Positions 13,538 to 52,137 of a stretch of 64,000 bases of DNA are shown here, one piece after another. The notes beneath the pieces are model-generated. The model saw only the letters and a list, made by a program, of their open reading frames with translations. It was not told the DNA's origin and searched no databases. The translations under genes were made by a program, and so were the position numbers. Source of the stretch: an uncultured Planctomycetales bacterium. Its GTDB lineage: Bacteria > Omnitrophota > Gorgyraeia > Zapsychrales > JANLHA01. Position 1 is the first letter of the stretch. Every line of letters starts with the position of its first letter. Where the stretch lies: the NCBI GenBank assembly GCA_964474085.1, contig CAYYRJ010000003.1, positions 21,348-85,347 of the forward strand, in the 5' to 3' direction.

Positions 13538-13539
13538 AA

Positions 13540-29263: not shown

Positions 29264-31086
29264 TCGCTAATATTTAAATAATGGGCATCGGCCAATCGTT
29301 TTTTAGCCTGATAGAGTTCTTTGACTTGCCTTCTCCACTGATGAAGATCTGCACATGTGACACAGCCGTCTTTGTTGAGATCGAACGATAAAATTAAAAT
29401 ATTCTGTCGATCTGTTGTCAGACAGCGGTTGATTAAGGGTTTGAATTGTTCGATGTTTTCCTTGTCACAAAGATACTGCTCATTTCTTGGCGCTGGCGGT
29501 TCGATCCAAGTGCCAAAACCTTTGGTACAACCGCGAAATGATGTCGGTTCAGATTCAGACACGGTATTTTCAACGTAAGTTTTTTTTGATTTTAGGCGTG
29601 ATTCTTTAGCCTTCATGATTTTATCAGCTTTTTCTTTCTCTTGGGCTTCTCGTTTTTCTTTAGCTGCTTGAAGTTTGGCTGCCTTATCGTTTCTAATTTT
29701 AACTGCTTTTGCGTCTCTTTCTTCTTTTGCTTTTTGAATTTTGCCAGTTTTCGTTTTTGCTTTCGCTTCGTTTTCTTCTTTAATCTTTTGAAGTCTTGCA
29801 GATTGTTCTTGGGCTTTTGCTGCTTTTTCTTTTCTTATTTTTTCAGCTTTTTCGTCGGCCTTTGAAGTCTTTGTATTTTTAACTGCAGGAATATCAGCAA
29901 TTTCGGTAGGTGCAGGAGGTACTGCACTTTCAACAATTTCTAAAGGGACTTGTGAATACGTTTGAGCTGGGCTCATTGTCTGGGGATATTGATTATCATC
30001 ATTTTCAAGCAAAGCATTTTTAATATCCGCAGGCTGTTCAACAAATTCAGCGTCTTGTGCCACCTTACGTTCAGCTTTTTCGCGAATTTTAGCGGCTTTG
30101 TCGTCGCGAGCTTGTTGAAGTTTAGCTTCTCTTTGTTCTTTAGCTTCTTGGAGCTTGGCCTGTTTAGCTTCGAGTTGGGCGGCTTTGTCGTCGCGGGATT
30201 GTTGAAACTTGGCTGCTTTTTGTTCTTTGGCTTCTTGGACCTTGGCCCGTTTAGCTTCGAGCTGGGCGGCTTTGTCGTCGCGGGCTTGTTGAAACTTGGC
30301 TTCTTTTTGTTCTTTAGCTTCTTGAAGCTTGGCCCGTTTAGCTTCGAGTTGGGCGGCTTTGTCGTCGCGAGCTTGTTGAAGTTTAGCTTCTTTTTGTTCT
30401 TTATCAGCTTGGAGTTTAGCTGCCTTTTCTTTGGCTTTAGCTTCTTTGTCTTGAATTAATTTTTTATGTTTTTCTTTTTTGATGCTCGATTTACTATTTT
30501 TCAGTTCTTCTATTTGCGCGATGGCAAATTGTTTGCAGAGTTTGAAATCTAAAAGATTTTGAGGTTGTTCGCATCCTGCGACTGTTGACTTCGCATTTAA
30601 CCCGACAAGGCAGGATGTTTTAGCCGCGCTGGTATCAATTAACTCGCAAATGGTTTTGTCATTGAGCTGTTTTGCGCGAAATTCTAAACAAATGGAAAGA
30701 TCCTTTGCATTTGAGGAGCAGCTGTAACATTCTTTTTTTATATCTAGGTCGGAAATCATTTTGCAAAAGGAAAGATCTCCTGTTGTTTGCTTAAGTTGGG
30801 AGAGACAAGCGTTGATATCTTTTGGGTTTTGATTAAGCTGACAATCAGCTAAGCTTTGGGGTGGATGAGAAACGAAACACATCGCCCGACGTTCTTTGTT
30901 GGTGATTTTTAAGCACAGGGAATAATTTTGTGCTGTGAGTCCAAGAGTTTCAAAACAATCGTCGCGCCATTCCGGATAACCAATCCTTTCACAGCTGAGG
31001 ATCTGTTGTTGCAACAATGATTCTTTTGCATGAAGCATTGGCGTCCATGCTAGTAAAAGTCCCAGAAATAAAAGTAGTTTTTTCAT
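29242..31086 (-). CDS. secreted Cys-rich protein with central 29-aa (87 bp) tandem E/A/K-rich repeats and C-terminal EF-hand-like loop
   Basis: Signal peptide MKKLLLFLGLLLAWTPMLHA; >=4.5 repeats of AKLQEAKEQKEAKFQQARDDKAAQLEAKR (87 bp period in DNA at about 30060-30460); C-terminal DLNKDGCVTCAD fits the EF-hand loop pattern. Confidence 0.55.
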   Translation of the reverse strand: MKKLLLFLGLLLAWTPMLHAKESLLQQQILSCERIGYPEWRDDCFETLGLTAQNYSLCLKITNKERRAMCFVSHPPQSLADCQLNQNPKDINACLSQLKQTTGDLSFCKMISDLDIKKECYSCSSNAKDLSICLEFRAKQLNDKTICELIDTSAAKTSCLVGLNAKSTVAGCEQPQNLLDFKLCKQFAIAQIEELKNSKSSIKKEKHKKLIQDKEAKAKEKAAKLQADKEQKEAKLQQARDDKAAQLEAKRAKLQEAKEQKEAKFQQARDDKAAQLEAKRAKVQEAKEQKAAKFQQSRDDKAAQLEAKQAKLQEAKEQREAKLQQARDDKAAKIREKAERKVAQDAEFVEQPADIKNALLENDDNQYPQTMSPAQTYSQVPLEIVESAVPPAPTEIADIPAVKNTKTSKADEKAEKIRKEKAAKAQEQSARLQKIKEENEAKAKTKTGKIQKAKEERDAKAVKIRNDKAAKLQAAKEKREAQEKEKADKIMKAKESRLKSKKTYVENTVSESEPTSFRGCTKGFGTWIEPPAPRNEQYLCDKENIEQFKPLINRCLTTDRQNILILSFDLNKDGCVTCADLHQWRRQVKELYQAKKRLADAHYLNISECKDRKF

Positions 31087-32024
31087 AAAGATCCCTTTGT
31101 TGGAAGGTTAATTGTTTGTGCCAATTCTACCGAGACATTTCCTAGTGGGGTTTTGAGAATTGCATGCAGAGGTCTTTTGGAGCCTGATGCTGAGAAAAAA
31201 ACCTCTGCGGAGACTTTCTTCAGTTGTTTGCCGTTGCTAAAAACATAGGGTTTAAGAAGATAAGATTCATGAACTGTATTATCCGCAAGAATAATTTGTT
31301 TGCTGGCTGAAAGCAAACCGATAAAGTTATAAATGGTATCGTCCGCGTAGAGATCAAATTCAGAAGTATCGCCCAAACTCCAAGGCATCATTCGCAAATA
31401 AAAACCGCCGCTTAACACATCGAGCAAGCGTTTTGGGATCGCAAGCTCTTTGACTTGTCCATTGAGATGATTTTTATAATGGGCTTTGCAGTTTGCATAG
31501 TCGAAATCAACGGTTGACTCAAGAATCACGCCCCCTTTAACGTACTCTTCATGGCGCAGGACAACAAATTTTTTGGCGTCCATATAGGAAACATAGCGGT
31601 CCTTGGCGCCAAAAAGCGCTGTAAAAAACGGCATCGTTTTTGAAATCATTTCAAAGCAATAGACATCTTGTCCGTTGAGAATGGTTTTCCCATTATTGAT
31701 CGTAATAAACTCGCCGATCGTCAGGCCCAAATATTTGGCTTTAAAAATAAGTTTTTCTTGTTCTGGCATCTTTTCTGCAGCCAAAGCCAATGCCGATGAT
31801 TCAATTGATGCGGCAGGCGGCTCTAATAACGCGGTAGCGTTGTGTTCGACTACAGGAATTTGCGGTTCTTGCTTGGGTAAGGTGGCTTTGATTTTTTGGG
31901 CTTCCAAGAGGATGTCCTCTTTTTTCAAAACAGACGCACATCCTATTATCAAAAGAAAAGACAAGAATCCGATCAAAAACTTTAATTTAGGCATGATCGT
32001 TTTTAGAAAGAAATGATTAAGCAA
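31083..32024 (-). CDS. lipoprotein of unknown function
   Basis: Lipobox LSFLLIIGC-A after positively charged N-terminus; 313 aa. Confidence 0.4.
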   Translation of the reverse strand: MLNHFFLKTIMPKLKFLIGFLSFLLIIGCASVLKKEDILLEAQKIKATLPKQEPQIPVVEHNATALLEPPAASIESSALALAAEKMPEQEKLIFKAKYLGLTIGEFITINNGKTILNGQDVYCFEMISKTMPFFTALFGAKDRYVSYMDAKKFVVLRHEEYVKGGVILESTVDFDYANCKAHYKNHLNGQVKELAIPKRLLDVLSGGFYLRMMPWSLGDTSEFDLYADDTIYNFIGLLSASKQIILADNTVHESYLLKPYVFSNGKQLKKVSAEVFFSASGSKRPLHAILKTPLGNVSVELAQTINLPTKGSL

Positions 32025-32550
32025 CTTTATTGTCTTGTTTTAATTTTGGCCAATGTTCCTCGGCTAAAATATAGCCAACGCAACGGCTGGCGCGGCAATA
32101 GCAACGGTGTTCATCATACCCGTCATACCCGTAGCTGTAATTGTAGGTAATCTCTTCTCCCTTTTTGATGTCGCGCAGCGCAATCGTCCAAATTTTCCCG
32201 CGGATGATTTCTGTTTCGGCATTCGGGTCGCAGGAGTGATTGACATGTCGCGCTGTATTATAGGGAACATTGCCATCGATATCATAGCGTTTGTTAAGGT
32301 CAAAAAGATATACTGCCCCGAGAGTTTGATCTTCTTTATGGCGATGCAATGGAATAAGGGCCCGTTTTTCAGCTTCTGCTTTTGTGATTTTTTCGCCGAC
32401 GTATTCAATGATCCGTGTTCCTTCAGGGATATCTTTTTTTGCGAAAACCCCGCGGCCGTGGATCGCTGAATTTCGGACCGTAATAAAAGGACTGGTTGTT
32501 TTTTGTGGTTTCATATTGGGTAGAATAGCACGCTCGTCAGAGAAATTCAT
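32017..32550 (-). CDS. SET-domain protein (putative protein-lysine N-methyltransferase)
   Basis: HGRGVFA (GxG block), NHSCDPN (SET motif III), ITYNY, and post-SET Cys cluster CYCRASRC; 177 aa. Confidence 0.7.
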   Translation of the reverse strand: MNFSDERAILPNMKPQKTTSPFITVRNSAIHGRGVFAKKDIPEGTRIIEYVGEKITKAEAEKRALIPLHRHKEDQTLGAVYLFDLNKRYDIDGNVPYNTARHVNHSCDPNAETEIIRGKIWTIALRDIKKGEEITYNYSYGYDGYDEHRCYCRASRCVGYILAEEHWPKLKQDNKVA

Positions 32551-32572: not shown

Positions 32573-33580
32573 TCACTTTGCGGATCTATAAGTTTTTTTC
32601 CAATACGCCTCCAAAAAACGACGTTTCTTGACGAGCCACGCCTGATGATCATGGTACCAACGGATAGTTTCGTCAAGGCCTCTTTTAAATTCGACCTTCG
32701 GCGTCCACCCGAGTTTTTCAAGTTTGCTGCAGTCAACGCTATAGCGAAAATCATGGCCAAGCCGATCCTGGACAAATTCAATCAGCGAATGGGGTTTACC
32801 TAAATGATCCAAAATCATTTTGACGGTATTAATATTCTGTTGTTCAAAATAACTTCCGATATTATAAACTTCACCGATTTTTCCCTTGCGCAAGATCGTA
32901 TCGATACCGTTGGCACAGTCACTGACGTGCAGCCATTCGCGGATTTGTGCGCCTTTCCCATAAACGGGGACTTTTGTATTATTCAAAGCTTTCAAAATAA
33001 TGACCGGAATTAACTTTTCCGGATATTGCCAGGGCCCGTAATTATTGGCCGGCCGGACAATGATCGCTGGAAATTTATAAGTATGCAAGGCCGCCTGGAC
33101 TAAAAGTTCTCCAGCAGCTTTTGTTGACGAATAAGGATTTTTGGCTTTGAGCGGATCGGTTTCTTTGAAATAACCGTTTTTGCTCTCGCCATAAATTTCG
33201 TCGGTTGAAATATGGATAAATTTTTTTATTTTAAATTCACGCGAAAGATCAATAAGATTTTGCGTCCCCTGCACATTGGTCTTAATAAATGCTGATGCAT
33301 TTTGTATGCTGCGGTCGACGTGGGTTTCGGCGGCAAAATGAATGACGATTTGCGGCGCTTCTTTTTTAAAAATTGCGTGGAGTTTTTTGTGGTCGCAGAT
33401 ATCAACTTTATAAAACTTGATTTCTTTGCCGACATCTTTAAGCCGCTCTAAATCTCCGGCATATGTCAATTTGTCGACGCCTACCAGAGAATAATTCTTT
33501 TTAACGGACTGACGGACAAACTGGCTGCCGATAAAACCTGCAGCGCCTGTGACTAATATTTTATCGATGGATTTTTGCAT
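32573..33580 (-). CDS. rmlB: dTDP-glucose 4,6-dehydratase
   Basis: ILVTGAAGFIGS Rossmann motif, YSSTKAAGE catalytic YxxxK, 335 aa; adjacent to rmlA. Confidence 0.85.
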   Translation of the reverse strand: MQKSIDKILVTGAAGFIGSQFVRQSVKKNYSLVGVDKLTYAGDLERLKDVGKEIKFYKVDICDHKKLHAIFKKEAPQIVIHFAAETHVDRSIQNASAFIKTNVQGTQNLIDLSREFKIKKFIHISTDEIYGESKNGYFKETDPLKAKNPYSSTKAAGELLVQAALHTYKFPAIIVRPANNYGPWQYPEKLIPVIILKALNNTKVPVYGKGAQIREWLHVSDCANGIDTILRKGKIGEVYNIGSYFEQQNINTVKMILDHLGKPHSLIEFVQDRLGHDFRYSVDCSKLEKLGWTPKVEFKRGLDETIRWYHDHQAWLVKKRRFLEAYWKKTYRSAK

Positions 33581-33598: not shown

Positions 33599-34465
33599 CT
33601 ATTCACGGGTAGCTATTTTTTTTAGATATGTGCCGTAACTCGTCGGGATTGCATCGGCTAAAACGAGTAATTGTTTTTTGGTAATCCAGCCTTGATTAAA
33701 AGCAACTTCCTCGATGCAGCCGATTTTAAGGCCTTGCCGGTCTTCGATCGTTTTAATAAAAATGGACGCATCCGTCAATGATGTATAGGTCCCGGTGTCA
33801 AGCCAGGCATACCCGCGGTTTAAAACTTTGACGTTGAGCTTTTTATTTTTTAAATAAAGACGGTTGATGTCGGTAATCTCAAGTTCTCCGCGAGCGGACG
33901 GTTTTATTTTTTTGGCGTAGGCGACGACATTGGCATCATAGAAATAAAGGCCTGTCACAGCAAAATTGGATTTTGGTTTTTGGGGTTTTTCTTCGATGGA
34001 TGTCGCCTGAAGATTTTTATTAAACGCGACAACCCCGTATCGCTCTGGGTCCGAAACATTGTACGCAAAAACGCTGGCACCCGTTTTGGTTTTAGCTGCC
34101 TGTTTAAGCAGAACAGTCAACCGGTCACCATAAAAAATATTGTCGCCCAGAATTAAACAAACTGGATCTTGGCCGATAAATTTTTCGCCCACAAGAAAGG
34201 CTTGGGCGATCCCTTGGGGCTTGGGTTGTTCTTTATAGCTAATCTTAAGCCCCAGTTCTTTGCCATCGCCAAAAAGTTTTTCAAATAAAGGCAAATCAGT
34301 TGGCGTTGAAATGATTAGGATCTCCCGAATGCCGGCAAGCATAAGCACGGAAAGAGGATAATAAATCATCGGCTTATCGTAAATTGGTAACAGTTGTTTG
34401 CAAACGCTCTTGGTAATCGGATAAAGCCGTGTCGCTTTTCCACCGGCGAGGATAATGCCTTTCAT
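33599..34465 (-). CDS. rmlA: glucose-1-phosphate thymidylyltransferase
   Basis: [39 protein letters not shown] is the canonical RmlA N-terminus; 288 aa. Confidence 0.85.
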
Positions 34466-34480: not shown

Positions 34481-35695
34481 CTAACTGTTGACTAAAACAT
34501 CATTAAGAAAATTTTTGAATATTTCCCCGGGATCAAATTGAACAATCTGTTGCGACAAGTTTTGTGCGGATTGTCGGTACTTATTTTCTGCCAAAAGTTC
34601 ATGAATAGCGGCACTAACAGTATTTTTTGTTGCCAAAGACGGACGGATCAATTTTCCGGCGCCCAATTCTACAATTTGTTCCATGACAAAAAACTGGTCC
34701 ATGTTCGTCGGGAAACCTAAAACAGGAACACCATCTGATAACCCCTGGTAAACTGAGCCACTGCCGCCGTTTGTAATGAATAATTGGGCGACTTTAGCCA
34801 CTTCTAATCCTGAAACATAATCGGTCACAAAAAAGTTTTCAGGCATATTCGCACTACTGGCTCGGCCGGAAGTCGTAAAAATGACCGTGACCTCCATTTT
34901 TTTTAAGACATCCTTAATAAGGGTTAGTATCGAGATGTTCCCGGAAGACCCTAAGGATAAATAAATAAGCGGTTTGTTCTCGGGCCATTTGCCCCACCAC
35001 TCTGGATGTACCATATTTGGTAATTCACAAATTGGTCCCAAGTATTTGTGTGTGTTGGGTAAATTTTCGCTTGGAGCAATTTGCGGTACGTCGGGGTAAA
35101 GTGTCCATGTTCCCTGTGAATACATCTCTTGAATCGTTTTAACAGTTTCTAAGCCGTATTGGCGGCAAATTTTGTTGAAATCTCGATAATGAAGAGAAAA
35201 TCCGATTGGTGAAAAAATGCGGAACAATATCTCGCCGAGTTGAGGTCCGAGTGCTTTTGCGATTGGTAACTCGGGAAACGGACTTTCATTGCGTTTTGAA
35301 AATGGGCTCCAATAGGCGTTAATCAGACACACATAAGGAATTTTCGCAAGACGGCTGGAAATACCCAATGAGATGCGAAAATCTCCAACAATCAGATTAG
35401 GCTTTGTTTTTTCAAAGAGTTCTCGTTCATCGAGAAGATACTGTTCAAGCCGATCATGCGTATAGACAGGTTCGCCGGTGGATAATCTTTTATTAAACTC
35501 TTCCGTTGACATCGACGGCAATTCCACCCAGGGAAATCCTGCATTTTCAATCAGTGCCCGATAACGTTTATCGCATGCAAAGACAATTTCATAATTCTCT
35601 TTATCAAGGCTTTGGGCCAAAAACACAGGCCTAATGATATGCGATAAAGTAACTCCCTCTCCAATAAAAAGAATACGTTTTTTGGGCGAAGTCAT
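34481..35695 (-). CDS. GT1-family glycosyltransferase (UDP/dTDP-sugar glycosyltransferase, MGT/OleD-like)
   Basis: C-terminal nucleotide-sugar binding region ITNGGSGSVYQGLSDGVPVLGFPTNMDQF; 404 aa; start overlaps the stop of the upstream E1-nitroreductase gene. Confidence 0.65.
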   Translation of the reverse strand: MTSPKKRILFIGEGVTLSHIIRPVFLAQSLDKENYEIVFACDKRYRALIENAGFPWVELPSMSTEEFNKRLSTGEPVYTHDRLEQYLLDERELFEKTKPNLIVGDFRISLGISSRLAKIPYVCLINAYWSPFSKRNESPFPELPIAKALGPQLGEILFRIFSPIGFSLHYRDFNKICRQYGLETVKTIQEMYSQGTWTLYPDVPQIAPSENLPNTHKYLGPICELPNMVHPEWWGKWPENKPLIYLSLGSSGNISILTLIKDVLKKMEVTVIFTTSGRASSANMPENFFVTDYVSGLEVAKVAQLFITNGGSGSVYQGLSDGVPVLGFPTNMDQFFVMEQIVELGAGKLIRPSLATKNTVSAAIHELLAENKYRQSAQNLSQQIVQFDPGEIFKNFLNDVLVNS

Positions 35696-37659
35696 GTCGT
35701 CATTAATTCCGATAGTTCTTTTCTTACTGACCGAGGGACAGGTAATGTTGTTGGAGGAATCCCGACTCGTCCCATAAAGGCAATATTGTTAATGGGAACT
35801 ATTTCCCCGAGCTTTAAAGCGAGTGTATCGGCACGTTTTTGCATATTCGAATTTGTCGTAAATGAAATTTTATTTTTGCCGTAATAGGCAAAAGCCACTG
35901 TGGCAACGGCCGGCTGCATCACAAGCCCCAGTTGAGTTAATTGCAGCCAAAATCTTTGCAAAGCTTCGCCCGTCGCTAATAATGTTTGTGTATTGGTAGC
36001 ATCGTTAGGATTTTTCCATTCAATAATGTAATGCGCTGCACAAAAAACTCTGGGCAAGAAATCCATCTCGAGTTGTGGAACAATGGCTCCACCTAAAAAT
36101 TTATTCATAACGTTGACCCGTTGCCAACTTTGAATGCTAAATTCCAGCAATTTCTGTGTCGGCAGCGAAATCCCGGCTGCCTTAATGGGAACTTTATCCG
36201 GACTAAAATCATTTTTAAAATCCATCATGTGCTTGTGGGTTTTGTAGGTTTCTTTGATGCTCAGACGAATCTGCGTTGATAAAGCATTTAAACGGCTTAT
36301 GGCCAGCCGTTGGGAAAAATTTTCAAACCAATGAATTTTAAATTGATTGCCCAAAGAGTTTTCTAATATTGATTTTTGTTTTTGGGTCAAAGGCCGCATC
36401 TTGTAAGGAAAACGGTTGACGGAACGGATTTTTATAAATGGAGCCAACAGGCTTTCTTTGATTAAAGCATCTTTTGTGATTTTAAAATGAACTTTATGCG
36501 TTTTAGGGCCAACCGATTCATACGTGTACTCTGTTCGATAACCCAAAGTTGATGCGGCGATACGAAAAGTTTCGATAAAAAATCCAATGGTCATAATGGA
36601 GGGTTTTCCTGCAAAGTCATAGGTGCTGTCTTCATTGTGAAAATGAAGAATAAATTCAGAGTCGCTGGTGACTTGAAATTGCCACGGTTGCGAGTTGTCT
36701 CCTGACGGTGACCATTTGGCCAGATCGAGGATAATTTCAAGAGTATTTTTAAATATGTGTAAGGAAGTTTTTTCAAAAGAATTAGTTGATGCTAATTTTT
36801 GTAAAAGTCGAGTTGCAAAAGCGATACGAAGTCGCTGGGCTAGATTACGCTTGCCGCCACGAAGGTACCCTTTTTTTAAAATGTTGCGATAGGAGTCAAA
36901 ATTTTGGAACCAGGGTGCAGCAAGAACTTGGCCACGGTTTAAAAGGATTTTTAGCGCTTCGGCTCCGACAACAGCTGCGCAGAGATTACAAGCAATGACT
37001 GTGGAAGGCCCCCGGTTTTCTTCCATATTAACAGCGGCAGGATAAGCCAGATAAAAGCGTTGTCCTGCCGACGGGTTAAGCCCCAAAAGAAATTTGATTT
37101 GATTTTTAAAAGGTGTTTTTGGGTCAAATCCGTAGTATTCGTCAAAACTCATTTTCCCTGGCATAAAAATTTGATAGGAAACACCCATGCCCAGCGGTGC
37201 AGCTGTAATGGCAGGAATATTTAACTGGTGGCAACGCTTAAAAACTTTTTGACGAATATCTAAAACAAAAAAATCAAGTCCATCGACGTAAAGATCGGTA
37301 TCTTTAAGAAAATCGTCAATGTTGGCTTCTGTCACGCCGTTTGTAAATGGGGTGATTTTGATATTAGGGTTAATGTCACACGCTATTTTTGAAAGAGTTT
37401 CAACCTTGGATTTATTTAGTGTACTGACAAAAGCGCCAGCTTGACGGTTAATATTGGCTAATTCAAAATTATCCAGATCGGCAATATGAAAATTTTCAAT
37501 TCCTAGCCGCGCCAAAGTCAAAAGATGGCTCCCCCCTACACCACCTAAGCCGGCAATCGCTATTTTTTTATTACGCAAAATTTGCTGTTCCCAAGCCGTG
37601 ACCCAACCGATATTTCGGCTAAAAGCTTTATCAAAATCAAAAATTTCGTTAGTATTCAT
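35692..37659 (-). CDS. fusion protein: N-terminal E1-like adenylyltransferase (ThiF/MoeB superfamily, TcdA-like) + C-terminal tandem nitroreductase-fold (SagB/McbC-like) domain
   Basis: KIAIAGLGGVGGSHLLTLARLGIENFHIADLDNFELANINRQ (E1 nucleotide-binding), no CxxC zinc motif (TcdA-like); C-terminal SPSGDNSQPWQF and RFPYKMRPLT nitroreductase signatures; 655 aa. Confidence 0.65.
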   Translation of the reverse strand: MNTNEIFDFDKAFSRNIGWVTAWEQQILRNKKIAIAGLGGVGGSHLLTLARLGIENFHIADLDNFELANINRQAGAFVSTLNKSKVETLSKIACDINPNIKITPFTNGVTEANIDDFLKDTDLYVDGLDFFVLDIRQKVFKRCHQLNIPAITAAPLGMGVSYQIFMPGKMSFDEYYGFDPKTPFKNQIKFLLGLNPSAGQRFYLAYPAAVNMEENRGPSTVIACNLCAAVVGAEALKILLNRGQVLAAPWFQNFDSYRNILKKGYLRGGKRNLAQRLRIAFATRLLQKLASTNSFEKTSLHIFKNTLEIILDLAKWSPSGDNSQPWQFQVTSDSEFILHFHNEDSTYDFAGKPSIMTIGFFIETFRIAASTLGYRTEYTYESVGPKTHKVHFKITKDALIKESLLAPFIKIRSVNRFPYKMRPLTQKQKSILENSLGNQFKIHWFENFSQRLAISRLNALSTQIRLSIKETYKTHKHMMDFKNDFSPDKVPIKAAGISLPTQKLLEFSIQSWQRVNVMNKFLGGAIVPQLEMDFLPRVFCAAHYIIEWKNPNDATNTQTLLATGEALQRFWLQLTQLGLVMQPAVATVAFAYYGKNKISFTTNSNMQKRADTLALKLGEIVPINNIAFMGRVGIPPTTLPVPRSVRKELSELMTT

Positions 37660-37665: not shown

Positions 37666-37902
37666 TTATTCGCTGGTTTGTTGTGATCGGGTGGTTATAG
37701 CTGTATCGAGGATTTTTTTTGTGCTGTCCAAAGTGCTTTTGTAGCTCGACGAATCTAGGCTGGTTTGCTTGAAATAGTTATTTGTATTTGCAGTCTTCTT
37801 ATCCTTTGAGATAAAAAAGTAAATTAGACCAATAATAGCCAATGCGAACAGAATTGAAAGTAAACCCATACCCTTGTTGTTTGATAATCGATGGATGTGC
37901 AT
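37666..37902 (-). CDS. small membrane protein with Ser/Thr-rich C-terminal tail
   Basis: GMGLLSILFALAIIGLIYFFI TM helix then TSLDSSSYKSTLDSTKKILDTAITTRSQQTSE; lies between the prepilin gene and the E1-nitroreductase fusion. Confidence 0.35.
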   Translation of the reverse strand: MHIHRLSNNKGMGLLSILFALAIIGLIYFFISKDKKTANTNNYFKQTSLDSSSYKSTLDSTKKILDTAITTRSQQTSE

Positions 37903-37916: not shown

Positions 37917-38306
37917 TTAAAATTCCTCGAGCACGGCACCTGTTGAAATTGTATAGCTGTGTTTTCCAGTTGAACTGCTCATCGGCACGGCAGATATAAA
38001 ATAGGAATACGGATCTAAAACGTCCGCCACATAAGTAAACCCGTTTCGCCCTGTTGTAAAATAATCTGAATTCAAATACGGTGGGGTTGCCCCAACGAGT
38101 GATGTTGTATCCTCAGGATATTCATTATTTAATGCGTAGTAATTTTCAAGTGAACTTGATATGGTCCGCAGTGTTGCTTGCGCGGACGATTCGTTGGCTT
38201 GAATTTTAGCTCGGATGAGATTTGGCATAGCAATTGTTGCCAAAAGCGCAATGATGACAACGATAATCAAAATCTCAATGAGGGTAAATCCGTTTTTATT
38301 TTTCAT
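37917..38306 (-). CDS. prepilin-type N-terminal cleavage/methylation domain protein (type IV pilin / pseudopilin)
   Basis: MKNKNGFTLIEILIIVVIIALLATIA: canonical G-FTLIE class III signal peptide. Confidence 0.8.
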   Translation of the reverse strand: MKNKNGFTLIEILIIVVIIALLATIAMPNLIRAKIQANESSAQATLRTISSSLENYYALNNEYPEDTTSLVGATPPYLNSDYFTTGRNGFTYVADVLDPYSYFISAVPMSSSTGKHSYTISTGAVLEEF

Positions 38307-38953
38307 TTTTTATTTCCAAGCAAAGGTTTAATTTTGAAATATTCGCCGGGAGTATATCCGCCATAATTTTTTGTTGGTGTCGGTGGTGGTGTATTTTGTT
38401 CAATCGGGGTATTTGCCGTAGGCGTTGGTGTAACGACTGGGACAGTAACTTGTGGATTTAAAGCGTTTCGGATAGCGTTGATATCGTTGCCAAAAATAAT
38501 TTTTCCTCCAACGCGGGTCATTGGAAGTTGTGCGTTTTGCAAAGTTTTGTAAAAGTCTATTGCGGCTGGTGAACTTTCAACATCATATACCGAAAACTTA
38601 ATTTTATGGACGTCAAGAAGCGTTAGCAGACGCGTACAGTCTTGACAGTCAGATTTAACAAAAACTTCAACAGGAGTATTTAAGTTTTGCGGTGTCGGAA
38701 TCGTACTTAAGTTTTGTGGTTGGGTAGTTTGTTCTGCGTTTTCCGGCACGACAGAGACTGGCTTGTTATTTTCAATTTTTTTGAGTTGTTCTTCAACTTG
38801 GCTTAAATATTGGTCCGGAACTTTATTATAATCGGTGTTTACGATGTGTTTTTTACCATGGATATCTGTGTAGTTGACAAAGGCCGCTTCGCCGGAGGTG
38901 ATAAACGAAACGGACAAGAGAAGAAGTAGCAAAAGCTTATAGCAGGTTTTCAT
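38303..38953 (-). CDS. secreted thioredoxin-fold (glutaredoxin-like CxxC) protein with Pro/Thr-rich C-terminus
   Basis: Signal peptide MKTCYKLLLLLLLSVSFITSGEA; VFVKSDCQDCTRLL CxxC in Grx-like context. Confidence 0.35.
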   Translation of the reverse strand: MKTCYKLLLLLLLSVSFITSGEAAFVNYTDIHGKKHIVNTDYNKVPDQYLSQVEEQLKKIENNKPVSVVPENAEQTTQPQNLSTIPTPQNLNTPVEVFVKSDCQDCTRLLTLLDVHKIKFSVYDVESSPAAIDFYKTLQNAQLPMTRVGGKIIFGNDINAIRNALNPQVTVPVVTPTPTANTPIEQNTPPPTPTKNYGGYTPGEYFKIKPLLGNKK

Positions 38954-39092
38954 AGATGTTTAATTTATATCATAATCCGTGATAAAAAACTAAAAAAATC
39001 AAATTTTTAACCCTTTAGCGCGCCGGTTGCAATATTAAGGAAATAGGCTATAATTTACGGAATTTCTATCACATATATTAGAGTAAACACTT

Positions 39093-40073
39093 ATGAAAAT
39101 CGGCTCTATCACTATTGATCATCCTCTCTGTCTTGCTCCGATGGAAGACGTGACCGACTTGTCTTTTCGCCGAATTTCGAGAGAATTAGGCGCAGATATT
39201 GTCTTTACTGAATTTACAAGTAGCGAAGCGCTCATTCGCGATATTCCCAAGGCTTTGCGAAAAATCAAAATTTGTGATGAAGAGCGTCCCGTGGGGATTC
39301 AAATTTATGGCGGCGTTGAAGCGTCGATGGATGGCGCGGCCAAAGTTGCGGAAAGTTTTCATCCGGATTTTATTGATATCAATTGCGGCTGTTGGGTCAA
39401 AAATCATGTTCAGCGCTGTGAGTGTGCCGGGTTGCTGCGGGATTTGGCCAAATTTGAACGGATTGTCAAGGCTGTGGTTCGTGGGACAAAGTTGCCGGTT
39501 ACAGTTAAAACACGCTTAGGTTGGGATGAGAATTCCATTGTTATTCTCGACGTCGCTCGTATGCTTGAGAACATCGGTGTCGCGGCGTTGACGATTCATT
39601 GTCGCACGCGCATGCAAGGTTATAAAGGTTTGGCTGATTGGCGTTGGCTCGAAAAAATCCGCAAGGTGATTTCTATCCCTCTTATTGGTAACGGTGATGT
39701 GATTACCCCATATGATGTTCGCGCGATGTTTCAAACCGGCTGTGATGGCGTTATGATCGGGCGCGGGGCTATCAGCAATCCTTTTCTGTTTCGTGAGGCG
39801 AAATATTATTTAAAATCCGGAACACTTATGCCGCCGGCGTCACTGGAAGAACGTGTCCAACTGTGTTTGCGCCATCTGCATTTAAGCATTGAGTATAAAG
39901 GCCTAAACCGCGGGATCATTGAGTTTCGCAAATATTATGTCGGGTATTTTCATGGCCAGCCGAATATTGCCAAATTGCGTGCGGATTTGATGCAAATGAC
40001 CGATTTGGATGTTATTACCCGTCGGCTCTATGAGTATCTAGAAGAAACTTTCCCGTTAGTCCTTAGCGCTTAA
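39093..40073 (+). CDS. tRNA-dihydrouridine synthase
   Basis: LCLAPMEDVTDLSFRRI, IDINCGC, TIHCRTR blocks of the Dus family; 326 aa. Confidence 0.85.
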   Translation: MKIGSITIDHPLCLAPMEDVTDLSFRRISRELGADIVFTEFTSSEALIRDIPKALRKIKICDEERPVGIQIYGGVEASMDGAAKVAESFHPDFIDINCGCWVKNHVQRCECAGLLRDLAKFERIVKAVVRGTKLPVTVKTRLGWDENSIVILDVARMLENIGVAALTIHCRTRMQGYKGLADWRWLEKIRKVISIPLIGNGDVITPYDVRAMFQTGCDGVMIGRGAISNPFLFREAKYYLKSGTLMPPASLEERVQLCLRHLHLSIEYKGLNRGIIEFRKYYVGYFHGQPNIAKLRADLMQMTDLDVITRRLYEYLEETFPLVLSA

Positions 40074-40086
40074 GAAAGAGGTATTT

Positions 40087-41478
40087 ATGAAGAAATTCGA
40101 TGTGATTGTGATCGGGTCCGGCGGCGGCAGCAAAATCGCCTCCCCTGCCTCAAAACTCGGGTTAAAAGTTGCAATGATCGAAAAAGGCCCTTTAGGCGGA
40201 ACATGTCTAAACCGCGGCTGTATCCCTTCAAAGATGCTCATTTATCCTGCCGAGGTTGCCGTGGCCGTCCGTGATGCCCATCAATTTAATATTAAAAATG
40301 ACCCTGCGTTTTCGGTGGATTTTGCAAAACTTGTTGAGCGAATTTCCAAAACGGTTGATACTGATTCAGCGAGCATCTCGGCGGGGTATGCCCGCAATTC
40401 CAATATCACCTATTACCCTGGCGAAGGAAAATTTATCGCTGACAAAGTTTTGCAGGTTTTGGGTGAAGAAATTACGGCGGACAAGATTTTCATTACCGTT
40501 GGCGCCAGGCCGCAAATTCCGGATATCCCGGGCCTTGCGGGAACGCCGTTTATGACGTCGACGGAAGCTTTGCGTAACAAAATTTTACCGAAATCGATGA
40601 TTGTTTTAGGCGGCGGGTATATTGCAACCGAACTGGGGTTTGCGTATGGGGCATTTGGCAGTGAGGTTCACTTTTTGGTGCGAACGACTCTCTTGCGGCA
40701 TGAAGACCGCCAGACCGCCGATGAATTCCAAAAGGTTTTTTCGCAAAATCATCATGTGAACTTGCACACAACGATTAAGAGTGTCGACTACGCTAATGGA
40801 GAATTCACGGTTTTTTATTCGCAGGATGGCGTTGCTAAACACATTTCTGCCGAAAGTTTGCTTGTTGCCACCGGGGTTGTCCCCAATACAGATACTTTGA
40901 ATTTGGAAAGGACAGGGATTCTACTTGATAAAAATGGTTTTGTGCAAGTTGATGATCGTTTGCAAACAACCGTTGATGGTGTGTATGCTTTTGGCGATTG
41001 CATTGGCCGGTATCTTTATCGGCACAGCGCTAACTTTGAAGGGGAATATCTTTTTGAAAATGTTTTTGTCCATCCTTCGAGCGTGCCGATTGATTATCCG
41101 CCCGTGCCGCATGCGGTTTTTTCACATCCGCAAATTGCCGGGGTTGGTTTGACCGAAGAAGAAACGAAAGCCGCCGGCATTGACTATGTCGTCGGGGTTA
41201 ATCATTATCAAAACAGCGCTATGGGCATGGCGATGCTTTCGAATTACGGCTTTGTCAAAATTATCATTGAACGCAACACTCGCGAGATCTTAGGGGCGCA
41301 TATCGTCGGAGCAGAGGCAGCCAATATGATCCACATGTTGATTGCTTTTATGAGCAAAAATTCAACACTTGATGATCTTTTGAACATGATTTATATTCAT
41401 CCGGCCTTACCGGAAATTGTCCGCAACGCCGCCCGCAAAGCCAAAGCAGCGCTAGAAATGCAAATGGCTAAAAGATAA
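40087..41478 (+). CDS. class I pyridine nucleotide-disulfide oxidoreductase, dihydrolipoyl dehydrogenase family
   Basis: FDVIVIGSGGGS FAD motif and GGTCLNRGCIPSK redox-active disulfide; C-terminal dimerisation domain; 463 aa. Confidence 0.65.
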   Translation: MKKFDVIVIGSGGGSKIASPASKLGLKVAMIEKGPLGGTCLNRGCIPSKMLIYPAEVAVAVRDAHQFNIKNDPAFSVDFAKLVERISKTVDTDSASISAGYARNSNITYYPGEGKFIADKVLQVLGEEITADKIFITVGARPQIPDIPGLAGTPFMTSTEALRNKILPKSMIVLGGGYIATELGFAYGAFGSEVHFLVRTTLLRHEDRQTADEFQKVFSQNHHVNLHTTIKSVDYANGEFTVFYSQDGVAKHISAESLLVATGVVPNTDTLNLERTGILLDKNGFVQVDDRLQTTVDGVYAFGDCIGRYLYRHSANFEGEYLFENVFVHPSSVPIDYPPVPHAVFSHPQIAGVGLTEEETKAAGIDYVVGVNHYQNSAMGMAMLSNYGFVKIIIERNTREILGAHIVGAEAANMIHMLIAFMSKNSTLDDLLNMIYIHPALPEIVRNAARKAKAALEMQMAKR

Positions 41479-41522
41479 ACACTCGACAATGTTTAGAATT
41501 TGAGCAATAATGTTCCAAAATT

Positions 41523-42812: not shown

Positions 42813-42851
42813 CCGGCGTTAATTTTCTATACGGAGGGAATACTTTTTAGT

Positions 42852-43802: not shown

Positions 43803-44053
43803 CCGATTTAGTGCTGTACTATATGCCGACCTGTCCTTTTTGTCAGAAGGTCATCGGTTTTATGAAAAAAAACGACATCGAAGTAGCGATGAAAGATACT
43901 TTGATCAATCAGGAGTTTCGTCAGGAACTTTTAGGAATTGGCGGAAAAACACAGGTCCCTTGTCTTGTGATCGACGGCAAAGCCCTTTATGAATCGGATG
44001 ATATCATAATGTGGTTTAAAGAAAATTGGAAAAAAGTAAAGCAGGAGTGGTAA
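43799..44053 (+). CDS. glutaredoxin
   Basis: LYYMPTCPFCQKV CPFC active site; 84 aa. Confidence 0.8.
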   Translation: MTDLVLYYMPTCPFCQKVIGFMKKNDIEVAMKDTLINQEFRQELLGIGGKTQVPCLVIDGKALYESDDIIMWFKENWKKVKQEW

Positions 44054-44317
44054 ATGTCCCTTTTAAAAGAACTTCAAGAAAAAATTGAAAAACTTGTTCC
44101 CCATTCAACCGTTTATGTTCTTGATCCTCGGCGAGATGGACAGCATTTGCAGGCGCTGGTCATCAGTCCGGTTTTTGAGGGCATGCCGCTTGTCAAACAG
44201 CATCAAATGGTGATGACGCCGCTAAAACAAGATTTTAGCTCGTCTTTGCACGCTTTGGGTTTAAAGACTTTTACGCCGGAAAAATGGCAAGAGGTTAAAG
44301 GTCAATATCACTTATAA
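44054..44317 (+). CDS. BolA family protein
   Basis: 87 aa; PRRDGQHLQALVISPVFEGMPLVKQHQMV resembles BolA core; sits between two glutaredoxins (BolA-Grx partnership). Confidence 0.6.
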   Translation: MSLLKELQEKIEKLVPHSTVYVLDPRRDGQHLQALVISPVFEGMPLVKQHQMVMTPLKQDFSSSLHALGLKTFTPEKWQEVKGQYHL

Positions 44318-44326
44318 GGAGGAAAA

Positions 44327-48691: not shown

Positions 48692-49102
48692 TTATCGCTT
48701 AAGATTGCAGGGCAGGATTTGTGGCATTTCCTTAGGGGGCAGGACAATTTCGGCGATTTCAATACCGGCTTCATTCTCAGTAATGGAAGTAATTTGACAG
48801 CGCTCAAAATCAATCCCTTCCCTTGCCTGTCCTAAATACTGGACAATCGCCGCGCGCAGCGCATCGAATTCCAAATACAGAATAAATTTTGACTCTTCAT
48901 CGGTAAGTTTAAGATCCGCAAGCAGACTAAGGTAGGAAATTTCGAGGATTTGATCCAGGGTTTTGCCTTTTAAATATTTGCAAAATTCTGTTTCGGCTGC
49001 AATCTCACGCCCGCAGGTGATTTTTGCAAACTCAAAAGAGACAAACCTCTCCTGATGGTCAAGTTTTATAAAAATACTAGAAGAGGAATCATTGCAAGGC
49101 AT
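48692..49102 (-). CDS. hypothetical 136 aa cytoplasmic protein, last gene of the OMT-E1-nitroreductase operon
   Basis: No signal peptide or recognisable motif; 8 nt downstream of the nitroreductase-like gene. Confidence 0.35.
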   Translation of the reverse strand: MPCNDSSSSIFIKLDHQERFVSFEFAKITCGREIAAETEFCKYLKGKTLDQILEISYLSLLADLKLTDEESKFILYLEFDALRAAIVQYLGQAREGIDFERCQITSITENEAGIEIAEIVLPPKEMPQILPCNLKR

Positions 49103-49109: not shown

Positions 49110-50177
49110 CTAAAAAGTATTTTGGCTTTTGGATAAAAGCAGTTGCGAAACAGAATGACGTTTGGATCGGCATGAAAGTGGGTGGATCGGATAACCCAAA
49201 CGCAAAAATATTCCTGGTTTATAGATGTCAGTTTGTAATTTTAGGAACTTTTGATAAACATCGTTAACAAGATTTTGATGCGGTAGGCTATACACATCAG
49301 GCGTTAAATGACAATCAAATGAAATCAACGAGTGCCCAAATGGTTGGCAGGATAAGCCTCTTTGTGTAATCTCAAGCCATATTTCTTGTAGGCATCTTCC
49401 AAGATCAAACCAAGACCAGTTATTGTATGTGCTCGTCGATATATAGATAAGTCCGCTTGAATTTTCAAGAAGCCGCTTACATCCTAAATATGTAAAAATA
49501 CGTTCAACGCCAATCCAGAAAATAAATCGCAAAAACGGAAATATCGTCAGCGCCCGGAGTGTGACTTCTCCAACCCAGGGTATCTCAAGACTATTGGCAG
49601 CGACCCCGGCATTATTACCGTCTTTGTTAAAGTGTAAGGCGCGCATAAAATGTTGATAATGATATTCATTTTGGTAACGAATCACATCGAGTCTTGAAAT
49701 AAGAGTGGCGATATCAGAAAAATCAGATGTGAATAAATTTAGATTTAAGTCTTTATATTTTTGCACAATTTTCTTTATGGGGTCTAAATCACTTTCCGTT
49801 AACGATTTTTTTTGAAAAATTCCCCGTCGGGTCTGTCGCTTGCATATCAATGATGCCCAAGGTGTTTTGTCGACGAACGACGACTTTGTCAGTACTACTG
49901 AAAAGCCGTTGTCTTCTATGGGGAGAATCGTGTCAAGATCGTATCCATCGCTGCGAGCAATAGAAGTAAGGTTTTGGCAAAAGCAGCCCAAGGCGAAGGT
50001 GTTTAGAGCAATGTCCAGTTTTCGTGCGCTATGGAATTTGGGATTGATTGCTAAACGGAACGTGATTTTTGAATGGGTCTGGATTTCCCAGTCGATGGTC
50101 CAAGGCTGAAGATTATCAGCAGACGGTGCCCAGCGTGCGATTTCTAACCAGTTTATAATGAGCTTGCTAGACGGCAA
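49110..50177 (-). CDS. double nitroreductase-fold (SagB/McbC-like dehydrogenase-like) protein
   Basis: N-terminal WAPSADNLQPW and CKRQTRRGIF nitroreductase signatures; 355 aa (about 2x a single nitroreductase domain); paralogous to the C-terminal half of the 35692-37659 fusion. Confidence 0.55.
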   Translation of the reverse strand: MPSSKLIINWLEIARWAPSADNLQPWTIDWEIQTHSKITFRLAINPKFHSARKLDIALNTFALGCFCQNLTSIARSDGYDLDTILPIEDNGFSVVLTKSSFVDKTPWASLICKRQTRRGIFQKKSLTESDLDPIKKIVQKYKDLNLNLFTSDFSDIATLISRLDVIRYQNEYHYQHFMRALHFNKDGNNAGVAANSLEIPWVGEVTLRALTIFPFLRFIFWIGVERIFTYLGCKRLLENSSGLIYISTSTYNNWSWFDLGRCLQEIWLEITQRGLSCQPFGHSLISFDCHLTPDVYSLPHQNLVNDVYQKFLKLQTDIYKPGIFLRLGYPIHPLSCRSKRHSVSQLLLSKSQNTF

Positions 50178-50185: not shown

Positions 50186-51073
50186 TTATTTCGTTTTATT
50201 GTACGCAGTTAAAGCCAGTTGACGTTTTAGCTGTTGAAGTGGATTGCGATTGCCCCAAAGGAGAAATTTTCGCGCTATTCTTCTTTGTGCAGCGTCAAAT
50301 TGAAAATACCGAGGGGCGAGGAATGGTTTTCCTCTCTTTGTCAGAATTTGCATTGCTTCAATGCACGCTACTCCCGCGCAAAGCTCAATGGCAGGCGCTA
50401 ATGAGGGCCCTTGTTTTTTTTCAAAATCAACATACTTCATATCAATTTGTCCGATGTGCAAAAGCGCCGGACAGGTTCCAATTATAAAAGCAACAATTTC
50501 CTCTTGGGAAGTTTTGCAATTTTTAAAATCAAAATAGTCTTCATAGCTCATAGAACCTGGTCCAAAAACATGAAGTGTGGTTGTTAAACCAATTGGGCCT
50601 GATGCAACAGCATAAATTCTTTTAGCGTGGCAGGCGTTGTGCAATGCTCTGCGTGGCGAAATTGCAAAAGCGTCGATCCCATCCATTGCCAGATCGACAG
50701 AATCAAGAAATTCATCTAAGTTTTTTTCATTGATTCCTTCATCAAATGTTTTTATTTGAGCAAAAGGATTAATGTCGCGGATCATTTCAGCAATAACATC
50801 CGTCTTGGGTCGATTCAAATTTGAAATGCTGGCTCCTCTTTGCCGATTAAAGTTTACGGGTTCAAAACGATCAAGATCTGCCAAGTGAAAGTGGCCTACA
50901 CCCATTCGTGCTAAAGTTAACGCATGGGCTCCTCCGACTCCGCCGAGACCAGCGATAGCCACACGTGATCGGCCAAGAATTTCCTGTTCGTGCTCAGAAA
51001 GAATCCCTAAATTTCTGGAGAATAGGTTCTGATAAGTTGCTTGAACCTTGGAATTAGAAAAGTTATCGGTCAT
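50186..51073 (-). CDS. E1-like adenylyltransferase, ThiF/MoeB superfamily (TcdA/CsdL-like, no CxxC zinc motif)
   Basis: RVAIAGLGGVGGAHALTLARMGVGHFHLADLDRFEPVNFNRQ; DGIDAF...ASGPIG pattern resembles TcdA-type E1; paralogous to the N-terminus of the fusion protein. Confidence 0.6.
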   Translation of the reverse strand: MTDNFSNSKVQATYQNLFSRNLGILSEHEQEILGRSRVAIAGLGGVGGAHALTLARMGVGHFHLADLDRFEPVNFNRQRGASISNLNRPKTDVIAEMIRDINPFAQIKTFDEGINEKNLDEFLDSVDLAMDGIDAFAISPRRALHNACHAKRIYAVASGPIGLTTTLHVFGPGSMSYEDYFDFKNCKTSQEEIVAFIIGTCPALLHIGQIDMKYVDFEKKQGPSLAPAIELCAGVACIEAMQILTKRGKPFLAPRYFQFDAAQRRIARKFLLWGNRNPLQQLKRQLALTAYNKTK

Positions 51074-52137
51074 TACTTGATTCCAACAATGATGCCGTGA
51101 TCAAAGCCAAGTTCATATTTTTTAACACTGCTAAAGCCAGCTTCAAGGATCCACTCTTGGTATTCGTTCCATGTATAGAGCATACCAAGTCCTGTTGCAA
51201 TGCTTAAGAAATACGGGGAGCCTATGGCTGCGCTCAAAGGTCCTGTTTCATCGTTATTTTGCATCATATTGAAAATAATCACTTGTCCGCCGCGCGGAAG
51301 GGCTGAAAAACATTTTTTGAGCAGCTCACTATCTTTTTCTTTGCCCCAAATCGTAAAAAAGTGGCAAAACATGATTGCGGAAGCATCTTGCGGAAATGGA
51401 TCATTAAAACAATTTCCCGCTACGGCAAAGACCCGGTCGGACATGCCATTTTGCCGAATGTTTTCTTTTGCGATTTCACAGACAGACGGAGAATCAAAAA
51501 CTGTTGCATGCAAGTGCGGCCATTTCTTTGCAATTGCCATGGCATTTGTCCCATTGCCTCCTCCAACATCAACCAAATGCTTTACTTTGGATAGATCTAG
51601 CCGATCTTTTAATTGGGAATTTGCATAAACGGAAATTTCTTCCATCGCCTCTTGAAAAATCTTTTCGGTTTCAGGATCGTAAGCCAGTCTTTGATAAAGC
51701 GTTGGCTCAGTGCCTTTAAACTCACGAAGACCGACATTCGTATTTTGTTGAACAGACTCGAGTAACCAATAAACTCCCTTGTACATCACCCGATGCTGAA
51801 GCTCAACATAGGCAGTGATTTTATAAGGACTCGATTTAAGCAAGAATAAACTGGCAAAATAAGTAATCGAATAGCGATTAGCAGATTTTTTAAGAAAACC
51901 ACAAGAACAAAGGCCTAATAAAATTATCCGAATAGGCTGTTCCTGAAGTTTTAACTTTTCAGCAATCTCTTTTAGAGTTAAGGGGCCTTCTGTGTGCAGG
52001 AGATTAAAAATATTTAACTGGATTGCCGTGCGAAGAGTTTGAAACAAAATATGGCCGCCAAAAACAAGAGCTCCGCGTTCAAAATCTTTTCGTAAAACAA
52101 TTTTTGTGATCACATATTTCAATAATTTTTTTAACAT
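51073..52137 (-). CDS. class I SAM-dependent O-methyltransferase (Methyltransf_2 / COMT-like with N-terminal dimerisation domain)
   Basis: VDVGGGNGTNAMAIAKKWPHLHATVFDSP SAM-binding motif I and downstream blocks typical of plant/bacterial small-molecule O-MTases; 354 aa; stop overlaps E1 gene start. Confidence 0.65.
   Translation of the reverse strand: MLKKLLKYVITKIVLRKDFERGALVFGGHILFQTLRTAIQLNIFNLLHTEGPLTLKEIAEKLKLQEQPIRIILLGLCSCGFLKKSANRYSITYFASLFLLKSSPYKITAYVELQHRVMYKGVYWLLESVQQNTNVGLREFKGTEPTLYQRLAYDPETEKIFQEAMEEISVYANSQLKDRLDLSKVKHLVDVGGGNGTNAMAIAKKWPHLHATVFDSPSVCEIAKENIRQNGMSDRVFAVAGNCFNDPFPQDASAIMFCHFFTIWGKEKDSELLKKCFSALPRGGQVIIFNMMQNNDETGPLSAAIGSPYFLSIATGLGMLYTWNEYQEWILEAGFSSVKKYELGFDHGIIVGIK

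Follow-up and report, generated by a model that had tools for sequence, protein, structure and literature searches.

Two ThiF-nitroreductase systems in one bacterial DNA window, one fused and one split, very probably belong to the OxzB/TrzS/TyzBC oxazolone-synthetase family

The 64-kb stretch of contig CAYYRJ010000003.1 analysed here (hereafter the window) encodes two related enzyme systems. One is a single protein in which a ThiF-like E1 domain is fused to a nitroreductase-type domain (35692-37659), and in the other the two parts are encoded by separate adjacent genes (49110-51073). Our analysis indicates that the fusion and the split pair very probably are members of the OxzB/TrzS/TyzBC oxazolone-synthetase family. 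A sequence-only reading of the same DNA had recognized both copies, which are real, and had called their two-domain core apparently undescribed, which is wrong. The architecture has already been described and the loci are not an unknown core. The ThiF-nitroreductase protein with these two domains is OxzB, an oxazolone synthetase (de Rond, Asay and Moore, 10.1101/2020.06.11.147165; Nat Chem Biol 2021); TrzS (Rv1355c) is another fused form, and TyzB/TyzC are a split form (Eltis lab, 2023 and 2025). The fusion and its two domains are located as follows.

35692..37659, minus strand: predicted ThiF-FDO fusion, homologue of OxzB/TrzS-type oxazolone synthetases; 655-residue open reading frame (ORF) starting with ATG (Pfam, NCBIfam, sequence identity, AlphaFold2 model and fold matches)
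36880..37620, minus strand: predicted ThiF-like E1 domain (ATP-dependent cyclase), residues 14-260 (Pfam ThiF, E = 1.7e-37)
35695..36753, minus strand: predicted flavin-dependent oxidase (FDO) domain (single-chain tandem nitroreductase of the Acg/FDO type), residues 303-655 (NCBIfam Acg and Rv1355c families, Foldseek match to 2YMV)

The E1 part of the fusion matches the NCBIfam model PRK08223 with 390 bits, above the cut-off of 266. In the second half, the Pfam Nitroreductase match covers residues 303-335 and, at 30.4 bits, exceeds its cut-off of 23.5, and the NCBIfam models of the Rv1355c family and of the Acg family FMN-binding oxidoreductases cover residues ~290-625. The motifs quoted in the sequence-only reading are all present: GLGGVGG at residues 37-43, NRQ at 71-73, W316-SPSGDNSQPW-326 and R412-SVN-R416. 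In an alignment of 68 homologues they are invariant or nearly so. The invariant residues in this alignment are the G37-G43 loop, R72, K85, D126 and D129 in the E1 domain, and WxPSGDNxQPW, R412/R416 and G630-R631 in the FDO domain. D129 is aligned to ThiF D127 and MoeB D130, the Asp of the adenylation motif. With this residue kept, the E1 domain is predicted to be catalytically competent. A CxxC zinc knuckle had been said to be lacking, and this is essentially right: a single C-x-x-C (C224-N-L-C227) lies within a predicted helix, and the four-Cys zinc site of ThiF and MoeB was not found in the fusion sequence.

An AlphaFold2 model of the fusion, built on the 68-homologue alignment, has two domains, with a pLDDT of 91.8 and a pTM of 0.84. 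Foldseek comparison to the PDB placed the N-terminal half with AclA (9egb, the top structural neighbour), ThiF, PaaA, MccB and MoeB; a literature search on AclA gave nothing of use. The best nitroreductase-type match of the C-terminal half is 2YMV (E = 1.6e-11, TM(target) 0.70). 2YMV is an Acg homologue from M. smegmatis and is the closest solved FDO structure for TrzS as well (PMC12856293). As modelled, the nitroreductase half of the fusion has the fold of the FMN-binding FDO proteins (Acg-like pseudo-dimeric nitroreductases). The sequence-only reading had stated that its model would fail if this half lacked the FMN-binding fold; with 2YMV as the best match, this did not turn out to be the case.

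A protein search with the fusion returned more than 1,400 relatives. Among the matches listed are full-length ThiF-nitroreductase fusions of 43-84% identity from Legionella, Fluoribacter, Skermanella, Pelagibius and others. The Skermanella aerolata homologue is 45% identical to the fusion over 660 aligned residues. The gene directly upstream of this homologue matches Acetyltransf_5 and FeeM, and is therefore OxzA. In a pairwise matrix of homologues from genera with validated oxzAB pairs, which may come from other strains than the pairs expressed by de Rond et al., the fusion is 40-42% identical to the Rheinheimera pacifica, Pseudoalteromonas and Pseudocolwellia proteins. Between the Skermanella protein and the same three, identities are 42-44%. 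Therefore, the fusion (40-45%) falls within the spread of the family. In some proteobacteria, such as Janthinobacterium (loci L038, L048 and L058, about 6001-7990), the E1 and nitroreductase parts of the OxzB homologue are encoded by two ORFs that abut each other; the family therefore shows interconversion of fused and split forms. The public genomes closest to the fusion are metagenome-assembled genomes under the label Candidatus Omnitrophota. To our knowledge, oxazolone metabolism has not been reported in this phylum.

The second copy and its neighbouring genes are located as follows.

50186..51073, minus strand: predicted stand-alone ThiF-like cyclase (TyzB-like), 295 residues (Pfam ThiF, E = 4.9e-46; PRK08223)
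49110..50177, minus strand: predicted stand-alone FDO-type nitroreductase (TyzC-like), tandem, 355 residues (NCBIfam, AlphaFold2, Foldseek)
51073..52137, minus strand: small-molecule O-methyltransferase, Methyltransf_2 plus dimerisation domain, COMT-type (Pfam)
48692..49102, minus strand: IscU-like protein of 136 residues (weak NCBIfam IscU/NifU matches)

The split E1 protein scores 354 bits against PRK08223, also above the cut-off of 266. It is 40% identical to the E1 domain of the fusion and keeps the Asp of the adenylation motif. The FDO gene lies downstream, adjacent and co-oriented, after a gap of 8 nt. Its product is 21% identical to the nitroreductase half of the fusion (E = 2e-8), and the two have the invariant FDO signature residues in common. 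The NCBIfam matches of the split nitroreductase are to PRK14851, the Rv1355c family and the Acg family only. Its AlphaFold2 model has a pLDDT of 88.2, and the best Foldseek match is again 2YMV (E = 1.6e-13). In both copies, Foldseek and NCBIfam thus place the nitroreductase part with the Acg/FDO type, not the SagB type. The split FDO represents a rare lineage. The protein search returned only seven proteins, of which six reach at least 36% identity, and a metagenome scan for close relatives found identities of at most 31% over extended matches.

The O-methyltransferase gene overlaps the start of the split E1 gene by 1 nt. The O-methyltransferase-ThiF-FDO cassette is kept in three other loci with different flanks (L007, L009 and L010); from the closest to the most distant, the relatives of the split FDO there are 84%, 49% and 38% identical. 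A 45%-identical O-methyltransferase homologue is found together with ThiF, FDO and OxzA-family N-acyltransferase genes on a distant, high-GC metagenome contig (L102). In other distant relatives of the split pair, an N-acyltransferase gene is adjoining. The IscU-like gene follows the split FDO gene after 7 nt. Only L010, the closest relative, has it as well, and it may or may not be part of the cassette.

The usual genomic partner of these enzymes was surveyed in 80 genome loci, each coding for a relative of the fusion, and their flanks were searched with iterated profiles within 6 kb. An OxzA-family gene is found in 47 of the 80 loci, mostly directly upstream of the oxzB homologue and on the same strand. 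A divergent branch of the OxzA family, with proteins of ~290 residues, occurs in a further 12 loci, bringing the total to 59. Both the N-acyltransferase and a glycosyltransferase are missing from 12 of the 80 loci, several of which have truncated flanks. At the Candidatus Thiomargarita nelsonii locus (L015, 8077-12015), the oxzB homologue (48% identity) is directly followed by a single C-A-T-TE nonribosomal peptide synthetase module instead of OxzA, a possible alternative N-acyl amino acid supplier. In Legionella and Fluoribacter (L004, 7143-7946; L021, 5119-5937), a protein of 267-272 residues with no Pfam match precedes the oxzB homologue. The Fluoribacter protein did not match the OxzA-family hidden Markov model (HMM), and neither Pfam nor this HMM matched the unannotated proteins upstream of orphan oxzB genes in Legionella/Fluoribacter, L033 and L042. 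The 267-272-residue protein may be an unrecognized partner.

Downstream of the fusion lie a glycosyltransferase gene and two sugar genes, and upstream of it a pilin-like gene.

34481..35695, minus strand: GT1-family (MGT/EryCIII-like) glycosyltransferase (Pfam, NCBIfam)
33599..34465, minus strand: RmlA-type glucose-1-phosphate thymidylyltransferase (Pfam NTP_transferase, E = 5e-74)
32573..33580, minus strand: RmlB-type dTDP-glucose 4,6-dehydratase (Pfam GDP_Man_Dehyd and Epimerase)
37917-38306: pilin-like gene (Pfam)

These four assignments, made in the sequence-only reading, were borne out by Pfam. The GT1 start overlaps the fusion stop by 4 nt. In 25 of the 80 loci, oxzB is flanked by a gene for a full-length homologue of the GT1 protein, mostly of 33-41% identity (E = 1e-68 to 1e-112); 16 of these loci also have an N-acyltransferase gene and nine, like the window, do not. 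The GT1 protein is a probable tailoring enzyme. RmlA and RmlB possibly supply its sugar donor, and RmlB-like genes are also found near oxzB-glycosyltransferase pairs in L080 and L090. Our literature search on characterized glycosylated oxazolones or products of oxzB-GT1 loci found no paper.

The sugar genes occupy a slot that is variable in the lineage of the fusion. Genes for a bacterial SET-domain protein of 177 residues and a DUF3108 protein (window 31083-32550, minus strand) always follow the fusion in this lineage (L003 and L011), and the sugar-gene slot lies between the fusion and this SET-DUF3108 pair. In L003 the slot is empty and the fusion is directly followed by SET-DUF3108. In L011 it holds a PP-loop protein, RmlA, RmlD, RmlB and ADH, with no GT1. 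The PP-loop-like protein, of 333 residues, is found beside the fusion in two contexts (L011, 11108-12109, minus strand; L013, 9973-11127, plus strand, as two ORFs). It has an SGGKDS PP-loop motif and an N-terminal CxxC...CxxC, and no Pfam match. It was considered as a conserved partner of the fusion and rejected for the window, from which it is absent; its gene may belong to the sugar genes.

We think it likely that the fusion and the split pair turn N-acyl amino acids into oxazolones or N-acyl-dehydroamino acids. For the window, this proposal is based on homology, motifs, folds and recurrent partners, and the chemistry has been shown elsewhere for homologues. The ThiF-like domain of the fusion would bind ATP and adenylate an N-acylated amino acid, most likely an aromatic one, at its carboxylate. 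Attack by the amide oxygen would then close a 5(4H)-oxazolone ring. The FMN-dependent oxidase of the fusion would desaturate the Cα-Cβ bond with O2. The product would be a tyrazolone-, phenazolone- or tryptazolone-type 4-arylidene-oxazolone or, after hydrolysis, an N-acyl-dehydroamino acid. The same chemistry would be performed by two proteins in the split pair (50186-51073 and 49110-50177), like in TyzB and TyzC. The N-acyl amino acid could come from an acyltransferase encoded outside the window, or from a non-canonical source. The sequence-only reading had guessed that the TcdA-like E1 domain activates the carboxylate of a small molecule or peptide by adenylation and that flavin redox chemistry follows; such chemistry on a small molecule is the mechanism shown experimentally for the family (10.1101/2020.06.11.147165; PMC10404671; PMC12856293).

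The products of both systems could be further modified. The GT1 protein, perhaps fed by RmlA and RmlB, may glycosylate the product or the substrate of the fusion, and the O-methyltransferase may methylate the product of the split pair, as in the O-methylated stieleriacines. Based on the conserved adjacency of the genes, we lean slightly towards such a tailoring role for the two enzymes. A more specific proposal is possible but doubtful, namely that the lineage of the window has two parallel OxzB-type systems without clustered N-acyltransferases dedicated to them, coupled to uncharacterized tailoring by a GT1 protein fed by dTDP-6-deoxyhexose genes and by a COMT-type O-methyltransferase. Such systems would produce arylidene-oxazolones or N-acyl-dehydroamino acids that are glycosylated and O-methylated, or would use a substrate class other than the N-acyl aromatic amino acids made by OxzA.

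A number of observations weigh against the assignment and the function proposed above. An OxzA/TyzA/TrzA-type N-acyltransferase was not found anywhere in the 64-kb window by tblastn with the Skermanella OxzA, by jackhmmer, by the family HMM with filters off, or by a Pfam search of essentially all ORFs of at least 100 residues, relaxed thresholds included. None was found in the loci of the fusion lineage either (L003, 60% identity; L011, 67%; L013/L014, 73%), and a TyzA-like N-acyltransferase is likewise absent from the window and from the three close split-cassette loci L007, L009 and L010. With no N-acyltransferase in the window or in the loci of either lineage, the substrate is therefore putative. 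The fusion scores 370 bits against the 679-residue fusion model PRK14851, under the curated NCBIfam cut-off, and its FDO half scores 147 bits against the NCBIfam Rv1355c family, far under the cut-off of 476. The split FDO is very divergent, with 21% identity to the fusion FDO and six close relatives. For the tailoring steps, the GT1 gene is missing from the other genomes of the fusion lineage (L003, L011 and L013), and neither rmlC nor rmlD was found in the window. The missing N-acyltransferases and the divergent split FDO, together with the 12 loci that lack both partners and the Thiomargarita locus with its C-A-T-TE module, would fit orphan OxzB-like enzymes that have moved to another carboxylate, such as that of an amino acid with a short N-acetyl or N-formyl group, of the C-terminal end of a peptide, or of a precursor that is glycosylated or methylated, with the same adenylation, cyclisation and flavin desaturation. 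We consider this shift rather unlikely. The distance of the fusion to homologues linked to an N-acyl amino acid synthase (NAS) is no larger than the distances among those homologues, the catalytic and FMN-site motifs are intact, distant split relatives and the L102 O-methyltransferase locus carry an adjacent N-acyltransferase gene, and only 64 kb of the genome is visible. It is also unlikely, to a somewhat lesser degree, that GT1, RmlA and RmlB are unconnected to the fusion and form a variable surface-glycan or pilin-glycosylation insert between it and SET-DUF3108. The empty slot in L003, the different sugar set in L011 and the pilin-like gene upstream of the fusion are consistent with an insert. 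However, the glycosyltransferase gene overlaps that of the fusion by 4 nt, its full-length homologues recur beside oxzB in 25 of 80 unrelated genomes, the protein falls in the MGT/EryCIII small-molecule clade, and clustering of oxzB with glycosyltransferases was remarked by de Rond et al. (10.1101/2020.06.11.147165).

Two other readings concern the nature of the enzymes themselves. The sequence-only reading had compared the pair to the B and C proteins of thiazole/oxazole-modified microcin (TOMM) maturation. [quoted passage not shown] The domain pair is superficially alike, and the fold of the E1 half resembles the peptide-modifying MccB and PaaA. Nevertheless, this analogy is not needed and such a core is highly improbable. 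As that reading had noted, YcaO is absent: Pfam and NCBIfam scans found none in any ORF of at least 300 residues in the window. The nitroreductase parts match the Acg, Rv1355c and PRK14851 families and 2YMV; SagB-type models are found neither among the NCBIfam matches of the split nitroreductase nor among the best 25 of 27 families for the fusion. Homology is full-length to a family that acts on small molecules, and what recurs as a partner from genome to genome is an N-acyltransferase rather than a precursor peptide. A gene for a Cys/Ser/Thr-rich precursor peptide was not seen, and the only small ORF nearby is 37666-37902. This 78-residue ORF, suggested earlier as a substrate peptide, was rejected as a precursor: it encodes a conserved protein, 66% identical to a 77-residue ORF in L011 and absent from L013, with an N-terminal hydrophobic segment that is weakly prepilin-like (N_methyl-like). 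Public names would instead make the enzymes sulfur-carrier adenylyltransferases of molybdopterin or thiamine synthesis (MoeB/ThiF/MoeY). Homologues carry such names at JGI and NCBI, and ThiF and MoeB are among the closest solved E1 structures. We give this assignment next to no weight, as opposed to the oxazolone-synthetase assignment. The equivalog models TIGR02356 and TIGR02355 score 81 and 60 bits against cut-offs of 275 and 376, neither a ThiS/MoaD-like gene nor a rhodanese domain nor a zinc site of four Cys turned up in the scans, and Rv1355c, annotated as 'MoeY', has been shown to be TrzS (PMC12856293).

The remainder of the region contains mainly housekeeping and redox genes, including those for Dus, a glutathione-reductase-like enzyme, GshA, GshB, glutaredoxins, BolA, Mrp, IlvBN, ribonucleotide reductase, iron superoxide dismutase (Fe-SOD), peroxiredoxin and menaquinone genes. 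Searches of the window for tRNA genes and Rfam families found none, and promoter and terminator scans around both loci gave nothing beyond chance. Both oxz-like loci lie in a redox neighbourhood (window 38303-44638 and 57136-58300) with Gor-like, GshA, GshB, Grx, BolA, Grx4, Fe-SOD and peroxiredoxin genes, and a gene for a secreted glutaredoxin-like protein is located directly upstream of the pilin gene. The tyz locus of M. tuberculosis has genetic links to oxidative stress (PMC10404671). The redox neighbourhood of the oxz-like loci could be a coincidence. A segment of lower GC content (0.38-0.40) at 8548-17634 contains Zeta-toxin-like, Fic/RhuM, NTP_transf_5 and DUF4434 genes and long ORF-poor gaps (9841-11206, 13377-14095 and 16946-17634), and looks like a mobile or defence island. 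On the minus strand of 17634-31086 are encoded three proteins of 578-665 residues with C-terminal tetratricopeptide repeat (TPR) arrays and unannotated N-terminal halves, two proteins of 1320 and 614 residues without a Pfam match, and a trypsin-like protease-TPR fusion. Large TPR proteins (~930-970 residues) are also found near oxzB and oxzB-glycosyltransferase genes in seven proteobacterial loci. The Skermanella oxzAB pair adjoins an exosortase/PEP-CTERM cluster.

The oxazolone-synthetase assignment bears on public annotation. Genes of this kind still appear in public records as 'ThiF family adenylyltransferase', 'molybdopterin/thiamine biosynthesis adenylyltransferase' or 'hypothetical protein', and could be reassigned to the biosynthesis of oxazolone or N-acyl-dehydroamino-acid lipids. 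The oxzB-GT1 arrangement and the O-methyltransferase-ThiF-FDO cassette are apparently without experimental study and could yield new glycosylated or methylated oxazolones. Signalling and stress responses have been proposed as the physiological role of oxazolones. The acyltransferase-less loci could show whether the enzymes strictly need a dedicated partner.

The window enzymes share individual features with several known systems. TcdA, the ct6A tRNA dehydratase, is a ThiF-like enzyme that cyclodehydrates an N-acylated amino-acid moiety intramolecularly, at the expense of ATP. Such a reaction is what the window enzymes would have in common with it. The fusion, however, carries an oxidase and has no tRNA context, and the TcdA model NF011696 gives only 48 bits for the fusion and 68 bits for the split E1, under its cut-off of 304. 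The pairing of an E1-like and a nitroreductase-superfamily protein is shared with the TOMM C/D cyclodehydratase and its SagB-type B protein. In contrast to TOMM systems, the window lacks YcaO, a SagB-type signature and a precursor peptide, the adenylation Asp is kept in the E1 domain, and the family acts on small molecules. Stieleriacines, thalassotalic acids and kyonggic acids are N-acyl-dehydrotyrosines, and the stieleriacines have O- or C-methylated rings; in producers of stieleriacine-type compounds, NAS, ThiF-family and nitroreductase-family genes occur together in predicted clusters (PMC12479983). ThiF and nitroreductase genes are likewise present in the window, whereas NAS is missing. 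The O-methylated tyrosine derivatives are a precedent for the O-methyltransferase-ThiF-FDO cassette, with the difference that the candidate O-methyltransferase of Stieleria neptunia lies outside the cluster and that of the window is adjacent (PMC12479983).

The closest comparison for the fusion is OxzB, which a 2025 review listed as the sole validated ThiF-like enzyme with a small-molecule substrate (PMC12596934). OxzA N-acylates Tyr or Phe from acyl-CoA, and OxzB converts the products to tyrazolones and phenazolones in an ATP-dependent manner; oxzAB pairs from five proteobacteria were expressed, among them Pseudoalteromonas rubra, Skermanella aerolata and Rheinheimera pacifica (10.1101/2020.06.11.147165). 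The window fusion has the same di-domain architecture and length, 40-45% full-length identity, and the Asp and FDO motifs kept. Some oxzB genes cluster with glycosyltransferases (10.1101/2020.06.11.147165), as does the fusion. Compared with the oxzB genes expressed there, which are proteobacterial, the fusion gene has no upstream oxzA, overlaps GT1 near rmlA and rmlB, and has its closest public relatives in genomes labelled Candidatus Omnitrophota.

In mycobacteria, the fused TrzS (Rv1355c, 'MoeY') and TrzA (Rv1356c) produce N-acyl tryptazolones, as shown by the Eltis lab. TrzS binds FMN, and D217A abolishes its cyclisation and R540A its desaturation activity (PMC12856293). The window fusion is also a fused ThiF-FDO protein, with 2YMV as the closest solved FDO structure and the adenylation Asp kept. 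It differs in having no TrzA partner and in its Rv1355c-family score; at 147 bits against the cut-off of 476, it therefore belongs to a different subcluster than TrzS. The split counterpart was also characterized by the Eltis lab: in M. tuberculosis, the acyltransferase TyzA (Rv2336) together with TyzB (Rv2338c), a ThiF-like cyclase, and TyzC (Rv2337c), a desaturase of the FDO-type subgroup of the nitroreductase superfamily, produces N-acyl tyrazolones (PMC10404671). In the second copy of the window, ThiF and FDO are likewise encoded by two neighbouring genes of one operon. This copy differs in having no adjoining TyzA-like gene, in the O-methyltransferase gene that overlaps the ThiF gene and is kept with it, and in its rare, divergent FDO. 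M. tuberculosis has one fused and one split system in a single genome, and the same arrangement is found in the window.

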